Assembly (NCBI GenBank): GCA_031835245.2
Contig: JAVKOQ020000084.1
Span: 62,001 to 126,000 of the forward strand
Length of the DNA stretch: 64,000 bases
Source of the DNA: Balamuthia mandrillaris
Lineage: Eukaryota
Direction of reading: 5' to 3'
Shown here: piece after piece, positions 26,868 to 37,614 of the stretch
How the letters are laid out: each line of letters begins with the position of its first letter
Position numbering within the stretch: position 1 is the first letter of the stretch
Made by a program: the position numbers and the translations under genes
The notes under the pieces: model-generated
The model's database searches: none
Told to the model about the DNA's origin: nothing
What the model saw: only the letters and a program-made list of their open reading frames with translations

Positions 26868-29449
26868 CTATTCGAGCATATTTTTGGACCGTAAAGCGTT
26901 CCTAATAAACTCAACCATCGGTTCGTTCTTTGAGTTGACGGCAATGTCTAGTGGTGTCTCATTATCCACATTCTTCTGAAGAAGCATTCTATAAACATCA
27001 TCTTCGCCATTCGTAGCCTTCGTCTTCTCTTCACCATCCTCTTTTTTCTTCTTCGCCGTCAGCAAAACATAGTGGAGCAGTTGGGTGTTTCCAGCTACGG
27101 CCAAATGGTGACAAGGAGTGTTCTTCCATCGATCGGTTGCTGTGCAGTCCGCTCCTAAGGAGAGAAGCAGCTCCACTAATGCCACCCTGTTCCAGTGGCA
27201 GGCGTAATGCAGTACCTGTTTATGCTTTGTTTAGTGTCCTTACTTGCTGATGTAAAGCAGAAATGAAGGAACGTACAGTTTCCCTGTTGTCATTCCTCCA
27301 ATTTATTATATCGTTTCCGCTATGTTCTAACATCACTTTAAATACAGGCACACATCCTTATGTTGTTTGTTCAAGAATAAAATAAATAAGAACAAGCTCG
27401 CTTGCTTGATTTGTGTTTTCCCAAAAGGCGAAAACACAGACGAGCAAAAAGAAGAAGGAAGAAGGAAGAAGGAAGAGGAAGAAGAAGAAAAAGAAGAACA
27501 AGGCGAAGAAGAACAAGAATCAAGAATCAAAGATAAGAGAGAGAAACGTACCCATATAAGCAGCATAGTGAGGTGGTGTTTGTCCTTGTTTGTTGCGAGC
27601 AGCTAAATTTGCTCCTTTGTCCAATAAATACTTTGTCTTGAAGAAAGAGAAGCGGAAAAGATAAGATTCAAGGAAGATTAGCGGAACAAGCAAAAAGAAA
27701 GAAAGACAGAAAACGGGACATTACAATTTCAGCATCTGACTTTTCAGCGGCCCAATGCAGAGCGGTTTTGCCGTTCTGATCCATTTGCTCCACATCGTAT
27801 TTTTCTTCTTCTATTAACTGTATAACTCTTTTCAAGTCTTTTTCTTTGGCCTTATTATCAAAAGGAATATCAGATAGAGTCTTCACAGGAAACAAGAATG
27901 AGAAACGCGAAAAGAACAAAGAGAAAGAGAAAAAATATAGGAGAGAACGAGAAGAAAGAGAGGAGCCAGAAAAGAGATATGCAAAAACAAACCGCGCTGC
28001 AAAGGGGAGCATTTGGGATTTTACTGTCAAAGAAACGAAGAACTTGGCTCCAACCCAATTCCACAGCGACCCTTCGAGGCGTTTTTCCTTCGTTGTCAAC
28101 AATGGACATGGAGGCACCCAAGTTCACCAATAACTCTATCACCGCCAAGTAGTTTCCATCAACGGCATAATGTAATGCCTTGTTTGTTTGCCAAAGTAAA
28201 AAAAAAATGAGGCATGAAAAGAATAAATGAGTTAACAACAGTTAAAAAAAATACAAACAAACAAACAAAAAAGAAAGAAAGAAAGAGAACCGTTCTACCA
28301 CGATTGCACTTGGCGTTGATGTCGATACCTTTGTCAAGTAACGCGTGCATCTGTGAACAAGAGAAAGAATGATTAAGAAGAAAGGAGAACGCAGAAAAGA
28401 AGAAGGGCAGGAAAGAAGAGTACTTGGGCTTGTTCCACAGCAAACAGCCTAACAAGAAGGCCGGTATGTTGCACACGAGAGGTGGCCACTATCAACAAAT
28501 GGTGCAACAACGTCCGCCCGTCTTCATCCTTCATGTTGATCTTGAAGAAAAAAAAAGCAGCGTTTGAGCAAAGTAACAAAAACACAAGATCGACAAATTA
28601 ATAACAAAAGACAAGAACAGAAAATAAAATACAAAGAAAAAAGAAAAAGAAATAGAAAAAAGAAAACTAAAATAATCAAGAAACACAAATAACATATATT
28701 AAATATAAAGAAACAAAGAAAAAGAAAAAAGAAAAAAGAAAAAAGAAAAAAGAAAAAAGAAAAAAGAAAAAAGAAAACTAAATAATCAAGAAACACAAAT
28801 AACATATATTAAATATAAAGAAACAAAGAAAAAGAAAAAAGAAAAAAGAAAAAAGAAAAAAGAAAAAAGAAAAAAGAAAAAAGAAAAAAGAAAAAAAAAG
28901 AAAAAAGAAAAAAGAAAAAAGAAAAAAGAAAAAAGAAAAAGAAAAAGAAAAGAAAAAGAAAAGCAACAAAAGAAAAAAAAGAAAAACAAAAAAAGAACAA
29001 AAATGTAAGAAAAGATTCAAAAACATTGCAAGTAACAAAAAAAAGAAAAGAAAAAAGAAAAAGAAACAGAAAAAAGAAGAAGAAAAATGAAAATGTGAAA
29101 GCATCTTGTAACTTACCTCGAAATCTTTTGCAAGGTTTTCTTTAAACGCTGCTAAATTGGTCTCTTTCATGGACTCAAGGATCGCGTTATAAATGTCGCG
29201 CTGCTTCGAGGCCGCCAACTTCCAGTCGAACTCGCCCTCTTGTTGCTGCTGCTGCCGCAGCAGCAGGCCCTTGCAGGGCTCCTCCACGCGGCACAGCCGG
29301 CAGAACGCGCCGCGCCAAAGGGCAGGGTCCCCCGCCAGCCGCTTCCATGCCGAGTGCGCAGCCGCCGCGTTGCAGAGGTCCCTGGGCGACGTCAAGAAGG
29401 AGAACACATGCACGGAGAGCTCCTCAGGGAGGTCATGGGCAAAGGACAT
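26868..29449 (-). CDS. F-box and ankyrin repeat protein, multi-exon
   Basis: F-box LPEELSVHVFSFLTSPRDLCNAA..LW. Ankyrin motifs DEDGRTLLH, ALHYAV, DQNGKTALHWAA, NKQGQTPPHYAA and NVDNETPLDIA. Confidence 0.85.
28668..28960. repeat. Intronic ~110-bp-period duplication plus (AAAAAGA)n array
   Basis: CTAAAATAATCAAGAAACACAAATAACATATATTAAATATAAAGAAACAAAG occurs at ~28668 and ~28778, each followed by GAAAAAA arrays. Confidence 0.85.
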
Positions 29450-31779: not shown

Positions 31780-32413
31780 CTTGGGCGTTCATAACAACAT
31801 TTCCTGTGGATGCTTTACTTTCTTAGGGTTTACCCAACAGAAGATCAAGCAAGTGCACTGCTTCATGTAGACCGAAAAACTTGTATACCAGCATTTAGAT
31901 ACAGTACGTAATTATTTTTAGTTTTAGGAAGCTTCTTGCCCAATAGCCAAGCCAACTATTGTAGATGAGAAGGACTTTTATTGTGGAAAATGTAAGCAGC
32001 ATACCCTCAAGTATGAAGTTGGTGTTCACCTACATACTGGCCAAATTGTGTGGGTTTATGGAGGGATAATGGGTTCTATGCATGATTTGACAATTGCAAA
32101 GCTTAAGCTTGTTCATGAACTGGAAACAAAAGAACAGGTGACATCTGACAAAGGATATATTGGACACCCTGCTTTTCTCACTCCTTATGAAGGTCCATGG
32201 GATACTTTAACAGAAGAGCAAAAAATATGGAATAAGCTGCATACCAAAACCCACTGGGCTAATGTTGAACGTTTAAATCATCGTTTAAAGATCTGGCGTT
32301 GCTTAAAAGTGAGTTGGCGTCATGAACATACTCAACACCATCAAGCCTTTTATGTGATTGCCAAAATGACAAATGTTGAGCTTTTATTTACTCCTTTAAG
32401 GAAAAACAAATAA
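31780..32413 (+). pseudogene. DDE transposase relic (DDE_Tnp_4 / Harbinger-ISL2EU family)
   Basis: QHFLWMLYFLRVYPTEDQASALLHVDRKT, CPIAKP..FYCGKCKQHTLKYEVGVHLHTGQIVWVYG, GSMHDLTI, SDKGYIG and NVERLNHRLKIWRCL. The segment carrying the first catalytic Asp appears to be missing. Confidence 0.8.
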
Positions 32414-33091
32414 ATCATTCTATTTCCCCCAATTGGAGTGTTCACCCATTAGAGTTTCTTTTTTGCCCAAAATAATGCATTTTTTGGTGATTGTACAAAG
32501 ATAACAGAATGTTGGGGCCAACACACCAGCATGTTCTTCTTCTCTTTGTTGCGGCTTGTATCGGGTTCATCCCCTTGGAAGGCACAGTACTGCGCTGGAG
32601 GAATGCTGGTATAAGCAGTCATTGGTCTGTTAACAGTCTATTTATTTGTTTTGAGGAACACGTTGGTATTTTGTATTCATCTCGTGTATTATTATGCCAA
32701 CACAAGGGATGACCCGACGAATTGGATCGAGGACGGCACGGGAGCTGCACACATTCCAACCAAAGAAGACGACGCTGTGCTCGGTGGCACTGTGGACTTA
32801 CGTTTTTATGGCGTCTATACTGTTACCATTAATGTTTTGTATCAGTACCCTTTCTTAACTTTTTCATTTCATTCTTCTATTTCTTTTCTTCTTCTCCTTC
32901 TTGATCTTGTTCTTCTTTGTTAACAATACTGTTCTTAACATACACAAACAGAGGAGAGACCGACCGGTGGAAGTTCATAGCCTAACCCTTGAACAGTGCG
33001 AGATTTGTGCAGCTGACCTTTTGGAAGATAAATACAGCGTGTGGAACGGAACCGCATATCGGCAACTGGACGACAGGTATGCAGCGGACCC

Positions 33092-33146
33092 TGTTAGCAG
33101 AGTAAATAGGTATATGGGAAAAGAGTATGTATTGTAGTCTGTTAAC
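33092..33146. repeat. Left terminal inverted repeat of the Copia element
   Basis: 53/55 identity to the reverse complement of 37354-37408. Confidence 0.92.
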
Positions 33147-33275
33147 TGTAGAGATAAACATAAAGATAGTGTTGGTATAAAAAGGATTGGTATCGTGGTC
33201 CTTGTGGTGGTTTCGTGTTGTCGTGTTCGTGTTCGTTCCTTCCTTATGTGGGTAATGAGATGAGGGGTCACTCAA

Positions 33276-36200
33276 TTAACACTCCCACTTGATCCCGATC
33301 TCTTGTCTCATTCCGATGTCCGTGATTAGTTTGACGTGTTTGTCTCGCGGTAGGGGTTTGGTCAGAACATCGGCGGGCATCTCGTCGCTGGCCATGTACT
33401 CCAGCTTGATGGTACCCTTCTTGGTTTCTTCCCTGATCTTGTGGTGTCGAATGTCGATGTGCTTTGTTCTGGAGTGGTTTCCTGGGTTCTTGGACAGTTC
33501 GATACATCCGATGTTGTCCTCGTAGATGATGGTAGGTCCCTCTTGGGTTTCTCCGATATCGTCTAGCAGTCTTCTTAACCAGATAGCTTCTTTGGTTGCT
33601 TCGGTGATGCTCATATATTCGGCTTCGGTCGTAGATAGCGCGACGGTCTTCTGTTTTCTCGATTGCCATGATATTGGTCCTCCGCAGAATTTGAAGACAT
33701 ATCCCGTGGTCGATCTCCTTGAGTCGATGTTGTTGGCGTAGTCGGCGTCGGCGTATCCAATAAGTTTCGAAGCGTTAGCGTCATTGGTGTCGAAGGTGAT
33801 ACCGTGGTTTCTTGTTCCGTTGAGGTAGCGAAAGATTCTTTTTAGGGCTTTCCAGTGTTCCACTTTGGGGTCAGCAGTGAATCTAGCGAGCTCGTTAACG
33901 GTAAATGCTATGTCGGGTCTGGTTCCGGTGGCTGCGTACATTAAGCTTCCGATTGCGTTTCGGTAAGGAACCTTGGGGTCGAGCTTCCTCGAATTGCTAT
34001 ACTTCGTTAGCTTTACTCCCACTTGCGTTGGGGTGTTGATTGGCCTGCTTTTGTGCATGTTGTACTTCTCGACCATATTGCTGATGTAGGTAGGTTGGAG
34101 TAGTGTTGTGCGTCGGTTCTGTCGGTCGCGTTTGATCTGGATTCCGAGGATGAATTGGGCTGGTCCCAAGTCCTTCACGTCGTAGTGTGACTTCAAGTCG
34201 TTCTTGAACTTGTTGATGTTCTTGGTTGTTCCCGCGATCAGTAGGTCATCAACGTACAGTCCGATGATGATGATGTTGTTGTTCTCCCATTTGAAGTAGA
34301 TGCAGCAGTTGGCTGATGCTTTTTCGAAGCCAAGGTCAACAAGAGTGCTATCAAATTCTCCGTTCCACTCTCTTGCTCCTTGCTTCGTGCCGTATAGTCC
34401 CTTTTCTAAGAGGCAGACGTCGTCGGGATGCTCGGGGTCGACGAATCCTACAGGTTGCTCCATGTAGATGACTTCTTTCATAGTAGCGTTGAGGAATGCT
34501 GTGACAATATCCAACTGGTGGAGTTCTAGGTCGTAGAATGTCGCAAAGGCTATGATGATTCTAATCGATGTCATTCAAACGACTGGTGCATAGACTTCGA
34601 AGTAGTCGACTCCTTTCACTTGAGTGAAGCCTTTGGCAACGAGTCGGGCCTTGTATCGTTCGATCTCGCCGTGGGCATTCCGCTTAATTCTGAATGTCCA
34701 TTTGTTCTTGACGATGGTTCTCTCTCTTCCGGGTCGTTTAACGAGTCGCCAAGTTTTGTTCTTCATCAGAGCTTCGAACTCTTCTGACATCGCCTTAAGC
34801 CACTTCTCTCGATCTGGTCCGTTGATTGCTTCTTCGTAGGTTTTTGGTTCCCCGATGATTGCTGCGATCAGCGCGTAGGTGACCAGGTTGGCACTCTTCT
34901 TCTTGGGATCCTCTTCGATGAGTCGCGAGGTTATCGTGATAGCTCGTTTCCCGTCTGCTCGTGGCTTTTTGAGGAATGAAAATGCAGGGTTGGTTGTCTT
35001 CTTATCGATGATGGCTTTGCCGTTTCCGTCGCTGCTGTTGATAGGTTGCTTGCCTTTGGTTTCGCCTGCGTTCTCATCAGCCTTAGTTTCGCTGTCTTCG
35101 CCTTCCTCCTCTTCATCTTCGCTTGAGTCAGAGTCCTCTTTGTCGCTTAGGTCTGAAGTTTGCATCCTCTTCGGTTGCTCAGGCTTGTTTTTGATGGAGG
35201 TGAGTTTTTCTTTCTCGTCGTCCATTGTGCTCCGTTCAGGTTGGATGAACTTTACGTTGCGTGAAAGAGTAATTCTCTTTGTCTTTGGGTTGTAGAGGGT
35301 ATGTGCCTTAGACGTTTCGCTGGGTCCAAGGTAGATGAGCTCCTTCGCCTTGGCATCTAGTTTCTTTCGGTCGTTACTGGGTATGAGCGTCCACGCTCTG
35401 CTTCCAAAGATTTGGATGTGTCGGAGAAACGGTTTCTTTCCAGTCCAAGCTTCTTTTGGCGTCATTCCGTTGACTGCGCTGGTGCCGGTGCGGTTCGTGA
35501 TGTAGTTCGCCATGTTGATGGCTGGCCCCCAATATTTCTCGTCCAGGTCGGCGTGTTGAAGCATACATCGTGCGTTCTCCATAAGCGTCCTGTTGTTCCT
35601 TTCAGCGACTCCGTTCTGCTCCGGTGTATGGGGTGCAGACGTTTGGGTTTGTATACCGTTCTTGTGTAGGTGGTTTCTGAAGTTTTTGCTAATGTATTCG
35701 CCGCCGTTGTCGCTTCGTTGTGCCTTGATCCTTTTGCCGCTTTGGTTGGTGGCCAAAGCTTTATGTTTTCGAATTCTTGGAATCGTTCCAGTGCACCGTC
35801 CTTCGTGGCTAGTCCGTAGACCCAGGTTCGTCTGGTCAGGTCGTCCGTGAAGGTAATGAAGTATCTGGACCCTCCGATGGCGGTCTGCATTGGTCCGCAT
35901 ATGTCCGTGTGCACTAATTCGAGCTTCTCTGTGGCTCGAGTGGCTGGTTCTGTACTAACGGGGTTTCGGGATTGCTTGCCCTTGAGGCAGGCAGTACACG
36001 GTGCGAAGGTTGCGCCGCTGGGTATATCAATTCCGTTCGTGATCTTCGGTAGTTCCTTCAGCTTTTCAATGCTGATGTGGCCCAAACGTTTGTGCCATTC
36101 GTCCACTGCAGTATTAGCGTGCTCTTTTCGCGGCTCTGGTTTGCCTTGGAGGTGGTATAGTCCGTCTTCCTCCAATATTCCGATACCGATGACCATTCCG

Positions 36201-37288
36201 TCCTGTTTGAGTCTGGTGACTCCGCCGGATGAGGAAATGGTTATTCCTCTTCGGTCCAGGGTCGTCGTGGATGTTAGCGTTTTGTCGAATCCGTCGACGT
36301 AGAGTACATCTTGGAAAACACACGTTTCGTGTCCGTACTTTGTCTCTGTTATATAACGTAGGTTACCAGCTTCCGTGGCGGTTATCTTTGCGCCGTTTGC
36401 AAAGTAGACCTTGGTTGGTTTTGTTGGCTTACAGTCCATTAGCAGGCCTTTGTGACCCGTCATGTGGCAGGATGCTCCGGAGTCCAAGATTATGTCTCCG
36501 GTTGGTGATCCTCCTTTGAGCGACACGTTCATCATTCGCTCTCCTTTCTTTTTCTTACTACCGTTCTGACTGCGGCAGTTCTTCGCTATGTGTCCAAATC
36601 CATGGCACTTGTAGCACTCGATATCTTTGTCTTTCTTCTCTCGGCGACCGTGGTCCTTTCTGTTTCCACGTTGTCTATGGCGTCCGTACATGATTGATTC
36701 GCCTTTGCCGTCGAACTTGCTTTTCTTTCGGGCAGCTTCGAGTCTAAGTTTGTCCAATATCTCCTCGTAGGTGCTGCTGTCCTTTAAGGATAGCGTTAGC
36801 GAAGAAGAGACGTGCTCTAGGCTTCCTGGTAAGCTGTTTAGGAGGTAGTGGATCTTTTCGTCCTCAGGTATCGAAGCGTTGCTGAAGATTAGGTCCGCCT
36901 CGCCGATCAAGCTGTCGAACTTATCGAGGTGTTTGTCGAGGTCCTGATTGTCCCTCATTTTCGTAGCGAGTTTGGTGCGGAGCTCGGTCCTTCTAGTGGC
37001 GTCGGCCTTGTCGTATTTCTCGCAAAGCCTATCCCACTGTTCTTTCGCGCTTTCAAGGTTCGTCACCCGTCTCAAGAGTGGTAGGGTGAGACAGCTACAG
37101 ATTAAACCGCTGGCTATGGCGTCGTTCGCCGGATTAAACTCGATGTCTTCCTGCTTTTTGCTGCTGCTGGCGGTTATCGTTCCGTCGACGTAGCCCCATA
37201 CGCCCTTGCTCTTCAAGAGCGTTCTCATCTGGCATTTCCAATCCTGGAATCCATGTCCGTCGAACGGTTTGATTTTCAACTTGCCCAT
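33276..37288 (-). pseudogene. Copia gag-pol polyprotein with one frameshift (~35765) and one premature TGA (34575-34577)
   Basis: CYKCHGFGHIAKNC (zinc knuckle), ILDSGASCHM (protease), WHKRLGH..CTAC, HTDICGP / SDNGGEY / NGVAER (integrase), YVDDLL (RT), and GYADADYA / EAEY / EDN / KHIDIRHH / ADVLTKPL (RNase H). Confidence 0.95.
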
Positions 37289-37352
37289 CGTGCAGTGTGG
37301 TAGAAGGAGATTGTGAGTGTAGCGGTTTTAGTTTGACTGTGGGCCCATAACC

Positions 37353-37408
37353 TGTTAACAGACTACAATACATACTTTTTTCCCATATACCTAATTACTC
37401 TGCTAACA
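37353..37408. repeat. Right terminal inverted repeat of the Copia element (replaces the 5' LTR)
   Basis: TGTTAACAGACTACAATACATACTTTTTTCCCATATACCTAATTACTCTGCTAACA, directly adjacent to the PBS. Confidence 0.92.
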
Positions 37409-37614
37409 GCCCCAAGCTCCTTCTTGTGCGGCGTGGTTCTTGACTTGGTCGCTCCAACCGTGCTTATAGTTTGGGAAGAGAGCGGAACTATGGGGATAGG
37501 AAGGAATTCGTTTTTGAGGTTGAGTGGCAGCCAAGAGGATCCCTGGAGCACCCCGTTTGTATCTTTTCGTTATTTTCACCCTTCTTGTTCTGCTCGCTGT
37601 ACTAAATTCTTTTC

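Follow-up and report, generated by a model that had tools for sequence, protein, structure and literature searches.

A Copia retrotransposon copy in Balamuthia mandrillaris with an inverted LTR end in place of its 5' LTR

Introduction

Half-tRNA-primed retrotransposons of the Ty1/Copia group (Pseudoviridae, in the Hemivirus sense, with Drosophila copia as an example) have the coding order gag-protease-integrase-reverse transcriptase-RNase H, a polypurine tract (PPT), TG...CA ends, a primer binding site (PBS) for an internal part of tRNA-iMet that is flush with the long terminal repeat (LTR), a 5-bp target-site duplication (TSD) and direct LTRs. Ty5 is also half-tRNA-primed. The genus Hemivirus is defined in PMC8515867. 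Packaging involves two RNAs, and a strand transfer can take place between different molecules (PMC8515867; PMC6894440).

Aberrant HIV-1 and ASLV proviruses with one normal and one rearranged end have been attributed to misalignment in reverse transcription or to host repair (PMC9278108, PMC5041404). Asymmetric LTRs in 26 of 88 HIV proviruses were ascribed to such misalignment (PMC9278108), and HIV ends that are aberrant can be linked to viral DNA in both orientations (PMC5041404). Short-range template switches also produce inverted fragments that lie between short inverted repeats, with the point order 1-3-2-4 (PMC5453318). Inverted ends are further known from DIRS1-like elements, which have a reverse transcriptase (PMC3266345), from Ginger/Tdd elements, which have an integrase-type DDE domain and inverted ends of about 40-270 bp (PMC2836005), and from Penelope-like elements, in which a shortened inverted 5' terminal repeat (pseudo-LTR) lies inside the TSD (PMC3846280).

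Here we describe a Copia copy that has an inverted piece of R-U5 size where the 5' LTR of a half-tRNA-primed Copia element would stand. The literature searched, which leaves out most subscription papers, yielded no report of a Copia element with U5 at both ends.

Results

Ends and short signals of the element

The Copia element is 4,317 bp long and occupies positions 33092-37408 of the minus strand in the window, the whole 64,000-nucleotide stretch of B. mandrillaris DNA that was analyzed. The eIF4A encoded in the window is 100% identical to a protein assigned to this species. Its features are listed in Table 1. The PBS, the PPT and the 190-bp 3' terminal region were found as the initial annotation had described them, and so was the 5' end: upstream of the PBS stands a 56-bp unit that matches the last 55 bp of the 3' LTR in reverse complement (53/55 identity), and self-comparison of the element found no direct LTR copy there. 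Self-comparison of the window gave 96% complementarity between the inverted arms (33091-33146 and 37354-37409). Within the element, no internal repeats other than the terminal 55 bp were above chance, and DNA and protein searches found no second family copy within the window.

Table 1. Positions of the element, its signals and its insertion site in the window
Feature	Position	Strand	Remark
Left half of interrupted host exon	32952..33089	+	EGF/teneurin-like repeat gene family
TSD, left copy GACCC	33087..33091	+	
3' LTR	33092..33281	-	190 bp, TGTTAA...CTAACA; contigs with other flanks stop at 33092 and 33281
LTR terminal 56 bp, predicted R-U5	33092..33147	-	donor of the inverted unit; R-U5 boundary predicted
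Initiator-like CAGTT, LTR 134-138	33144..33148	-	predicted transcription start, LTR position 135
TATA-like TTTATA, LTR 101-106	33176..33181	-	about 30 nt upstream of the predicted start; putative
pol: RT C-terminal part and RNase H region	33276..34574	-	stop codon inside first LTR bases
PPT (short), adjoining 3' LTR	33282..33290	-	
pol: integrase core, SH3, RT start	34575..35768	-	closed by in-frame stop 34575-34577
gag, protease, integrase N-terminus	35769..37288	-	frameshift near 35760-35820
PBS GGTTATGGGCCCA	37340..37352	-	complementary to internal tRNA-iMet sequence; abuts the 56-bp unit
Inverted 56-bp copy of LTR end	37353..37408	+	replaces the 5' LTR
TSD, right copy GCCCC	37409..37413	+	one change
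Right half of interrupted host exon	37412..37546	+	

The PBS letters occur inside the human tRNA-iMet primer printed in PMC1797187, and the Hemivirus-type complementarity to an internal part of tRNA-iMet is thus judged on the human tRNA, not on that of the host; the window holds no host tRNA-iMet gene. TATA and initiator motifs are known as features of LTRs (PMC3601003), and the candidate pair in Table 1 would place the transcription start near LTR position 135. No RNA dataset was listed as containing the sequence, and RNA run X14 (about 3 in 100 reads sampled) gave five reads, none of them on gag or the PBS.

Coding region and affiliation

Pfam searches of the open reading frame pieces matched Copia gag, the Pol beta-barrel, pre-integrase, rve, SH3 and RVT_2, in the order protease-integrase-reverse transcriptase. 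Zinc knuckle, HHCC, D-D-E, YVDD and RNase H-region motifs are also present, according to patterns that we take to be diagnostic of these domains. The complete Copia organization claimed by the initial annotation therefore stands from gag to RVT_2 by Pfam, with the RNase H region, which had no Pfam and no PDB match, assigned by the presumed motifs. No tyrosine recombinase was matched by Pfam in the three pieces, and rve was present instead. Among the best 120 of 7,987 proteins scored, identity was at most 49%; exact look-ups of two proteins and an Atlas search contributed nothing further.

The pol gene is interrupted twice, by a frameshift and by an in-frame stop (Table 1), and neither break is in the initial annotation; both are missing from the main contigs of other samples. 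Lacking a 5' U3 promoter and having a broken pol, the window copy would not propagate, and it is a dead end.

The domain order, the PBS, the PPT and the 5-bp integrase-type TSD are those of Ty1/Copia elements. Two direct LTRs are absent from the window copy, and a direct LTR at the PBS is present in other copies (see below). By coding order, PBS, PPT and TSD, the element belongs with half-tRNA-primed Copia, with direct LTRs as the only missing trait. In contrast to DIRS1-like elements as described in PMC3266345, it lacks a tyrosine recombinase and internal complementary regions and has a TSD, a Copia reverse transcriptase and a DDE integrase. It differs from the Ginger/Tdd elements of PMC2836005 in having a reverse transcriptase (RVT_2), a PBS, a PPT and a full 3' LTR, and its inverted ends are no family trait. 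Penelope-like elements, in the available account (PMC3846280), have a reverse transcriptase of another clade and another endonuclease, and their inverted arrangement, which comes about by a different route, recurs across copies.

Insertion site

Runs X1, X2, X3, X10, X8, X11 and X17 all have contigs that run across an empty site. In X10, a contig skips 4,322 bases, equal to the 4,317 bases of the element plus 5, and the empty site in X11 is on the window's own haplotype with the target GACCC. These two contigs confirm the 5-bp TSD GACCC/GCCCC of the initial annotation and indicate that its right copy changed once. The empty sites have a single target without footprint, as expected of alleles that were never occupied. 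The two halves of the interrupted exon match adjacent positions in three paralogues within the window, and the insertion interrupts a surface-protein paralogue.

An assembly or amplification chimera as the source of the inverted end is very unlikely. It would agree with the finding that neither the window's inverted junction nor this insertion is among the matches listed for any of the eight runs compared. However, the compared samples show empty sites and therefore need not hold the insertion, the empty site fits to the base, and an assembler would have needed two joins across 4-5 nt each.

At about 32400-53000, the window contains an array of four paralogues with EGF/teneurin-like repeats, three on the plus strand and one on the minus strand, and the first gene of the array has mosaic haplotypes among the compared samples. 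Just upstream of the interrupted gene, Pfam identified a DDE_Tnp_4 transposase fragment (31928-32413, plus strand), presumably of Harbinger type. A 110-bp tandem duplication in an A-rich tract at 28656-28927 is either natural or assembly-made.

Form of the family in other samples

We judged the form of the family on the contigs of seven runs, which represent five samples from five studies; eight of the 19 listed runs were compared. Contigs can drop minor variants, and the contig tables are read as matches listed. A direct LTR was joined to the PBS in six of the seven contig runs and in all five samples. The joint from the PBS into the direct LTR (37350 to 33090) had a depth of 534 in X1 and 32.4 in X3, equal to the depth of the gag contigs in these runs, and the direct joint stood at full gag depth in three runs. 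The PBS letters formed a loose end before 33090 in X2, the direct form appeared in X8 as a strand-changing joint (37357 to 37403, depth 260.9), and loose ends ran from the PBS into a direct U5 in X11 and X17; no direct PBS-LTR joint was among the matches listed for X10. Internal depth was about ten times the flank depth in X1 and X8, which we read as a multi-copy family and not as a copy number. The window copy differed from X3 contigs at 15 of 1,786 and 27 of 2,374 letters (about 1%). The family is thus an ordinary direct-LTR Copia family, in which the window copy is aberrant. The undescribed architecture or replication route, or integrase cut-and-paste, that the initial annotation had put forward fails by the refuting test named in that annotation, since the other family copies join the PBS to a direct LTR in all five samples.

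Other rearranged copies were seen in the same runs. A decayed copy common to X1, X2 and X10 (33875-34520) carries a replacement of 493 bp as well as a strand-changing joint in the reverse transcriptase region, and the same three runs hold several further copies with internal deletions. One X11 contig (37201 to 37379) joins antisense gag to sense U5, with the same polarity as the window's inverted junction; its depth is 8.8, its shorter side is 25 letters, it has an apparent CATAC microhomology, and its other end is unseen. In X17, a 92-nt contig (37327-37362, depth 4.7) links the leader, right behind the PBS, with a U5 end in inverted orientation. With one contig each, the X11 and X17 junctions could be library chimeras or decayed copies, and that in X17 could also come from autointegration, nesting or error.

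Environmental loci with the same PBS

As a metagenome control, we collected at least 121 loci with the PBS motif, most of them too short to hold both ends, and obtained flanks for 80. At least 30 of the 121 had Copia-like coding downstream of the PBS. Among the loci listed, the repeat beside the PBS was direct in at least 20 and inverted in none of the 121, and the window itself, used as a positive control, gave the inverted signal. Under looser settings, applied to five loci, L075 had a direct 58-bp match, L044 had a weak internal inverted match (38 bp, 82%) and L036 had matches of 14-17 bp only. The family's own PBS junction was not found in the metagenome contigs.

These counts bear on the idea of a Copia lineage that replicates with inverted ends, by hairpin priming or integrase cut-and-paste. 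Such a lineage could account for the clean TG...CA ends in a TSD and for the inverted U5 junctions near the 5' end in the single contigs of X11 and X17, and its copies might be among the variants dropped from contigs. Nevertheless, it is extremely unlikely: the direct form was found in all five samples and at least 20 times, against no inverted case, among the metagenome loci listed, and the window copy is without a strand-transfer repeat, an internal complementary region, a tyrosine recombinase match and a 5' promoter, and has a broken pol.

Junction geometry and hairpin

Past the PBS, the minus strand normally reads TGTTAGCAGAG, and in the window it reads TGTTAACAGAC; AGTTAACAGAC is the LTR sequence from position 135 onward. 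At the inner junction, the crossover falls in a microhomology of 4 nt, GTTA, itself part of an inverted repeat that matches at 8 of 9 positions, and an arm match of 8/9 was reached in 36 of 5,000 shuffles. The distance between the inner junction and the edge of the PBS is 5 nt; on the outside, the unit finishes as a clean LTR end directly against the TSD. TGTTA occurs at the LTR start and again in the reverse-complemented LTR end.

The minus-strand copy of the LTR end folds as a hairpin (z -3.75, reached by 1 of 200 shuffles) whose arms coincide with the limits of the 56-bp unit, and all 19 control LTR ends had z of -1.43 or weaker. On the sense strand the hairpin was not significant (DNA z 0.54; whole-LTR RNA z -0.16). 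The main family LTR in the compared runs is one base shorter than the window LTR in the inner hairpin arm, at 33142, so the window's lineage may pair better in the hairpin register.

Between the unit and the 3' LTR, 2 of 55 sites differ, and the TSD copy next to the unit is changed at 1 of 5, giving three changes in 61 bp, which suggests a number above background (P 0.018-0.125, depending on the rate assumed). The excess of changes at the unit and TSD fits error-prone repair.

Discussion

We propose that the 56-bp inverted end arose by mispairing in reverse transcription, with formation of a cDNA that had two U5 ends and was accepted by the integrase, and we hold this explanation to be a little better than an even bet. 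What has been observed or computed is the direct form of the family, the unoccupied site, the TSD, the geometry of the junction and the hairpin at the unit limits; from the junction geometry onward we infer the following steps. The unit has the size of the minus strong-stop DNA (55-56 nt) predicted for a transcript that starts near LTR position 135. The long minus strand would have paused just past the PBS, after TGTTA or TGTTAGCAGA. Its partner would have been the 3' arm of a strong-stop molecule, to which it paired in the U5 hairpin register; this molecule probably came from the second packaged RNA. Each strand would then have been extended on the other to give a linear cDNA with U5 at both ends, so that the second strand transfer would be skipped, and the integrase would have joined both CA-3' ends with the normal 5-bp stagger. 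A partner from the second RNA could be the source of the two differences between the U5 copies. One abnormal junction suffices in the reverse-transcription model, which needs the tRNA primer to be off the strong-stop DNA and one or two mispairs to be resolved. The changes clustered at the unit and TSD, and the lack of a significant hairpin on the sense strand, weigh against this model. The described HIV-1 and ASLV cases consist for the most part of deletions or of ends that carry long duplications of host DNA, whereas both ends of the window copy are U5 in a 5-bp TSD; in the available texts (PMC9278108, PMC5041404), the HIV precedents are either deletions or one-ended integrations provoked by drugs or mutants, and none is a two-U5 molecule that has a normal TSD.

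The other possibility raised in the initial annotation, a rare aberrant cDNA still competent for integration, is the best explanation. The annotation's further statement that the molecule integrated as a unit is likely to hold, yet a template switch after insertion would yield the identical sequence because the two ends of the LTR share TGTTA. Here, a normal insertion would have had its 5' LTR rewritten during replication or repair: copying would leave after TGTTA, run backwards along the LTR end for about 50 nt and return at its last bases, with about 130 bp lost. We consider this course of events possible but unlikely. Both junctions have microhomology (TGTTA, and GTTA in the hairpin arm), the hairpin supports a post-insertion switch equally well, the point order 1-3-2-4 is the commonest class (45%) in the human data of PMC5453318, the changes are clustered at the unit, and deletions and strand-changing joints occur in other copies. 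On the other hand, template switches are rare in the same source (4,778 candidates against 14.51 million base differences), and the window copy is absent from the compared samples. Its junctions are at retroelement landmarks and it has lost about 130 bp, which sets it apart from the switch inversions described there. We rank the template switch below an error in reverse transcription because two switches and the 130-bp loss would be required in a copy only about 1% diverged from other copies.

It is also conceivable, though decidedly improbable, that the integrase took the U5 ends of two cDNAs, or that one end failed, and that host repair linked the pieces by microhomology. The differences between the two U5 copies would be accounted for, and one-ended integrations with host repair have been described for HIV and ASLV (PMC5041404). 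According to the available part of that source, however, such events usually leave long duplications or deletions and not a 5-bp TSD, and the junction at the PBS edge is left unexplained. Autointegration (as treated in the available text of PMC7197481) was rejected for the window junction, as this junction keeps the natural LTR-PBS join, and nested insertion with deletion was rejected, as both TSD-adjacent ends are U5.

Taken together, the window copy is likely a one-off copying accident that was still inserted, and no new kind of element. It suggests that a Copia integrase is able to insert a two-U5 molecule with the normal 5-bp duplication, and a single copy of this kind can mimic an element with terminal inverted repeats and mislead annotation. 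The locus also reveals a half-tRNA-primed Copia family that is multi-copy and whose insertions differ between Balamuthia samples.

More doubtful is the idea that the U5 hairpin opens a recurring side route, in which strong-stop DNA acts in trans as the primer of plus-strand synthesis and integration-competent two-U5 cDNAs result; the inverted U5 junctions of X11 and X17 would then be further cases. If this side route is true, an LTR retrotransposon repeatedly leaves transposon-like copies with inverted ends, and if it recurs, it provides a testable direct path from LTR ends to inverted ends. That two-U5 copies then move on their own is hardly credible.

Two minor observations concern the PBS and the LTR end. 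Five metagenome loci (L011, L012, L015, L077 and L090) are short TRIM-like elements with direct repeats of 75-86 bp located 156-297 nt behind the same half-tRNA PBS. The LTR end of the window copy (33092-33103) carries ACTCTGCT, which is complementary to the 5' end that a primer in PMC1797187 gives for tRNA-iMet and also resembles the 3' end of the same tRNA; CTCTGCT was present within 40 nt of the PBS in none of the 121 metagenome loci listed. Judged from these letters, ACTCTGCT at the LTR end may lengthen primer pairing in this Copia family.
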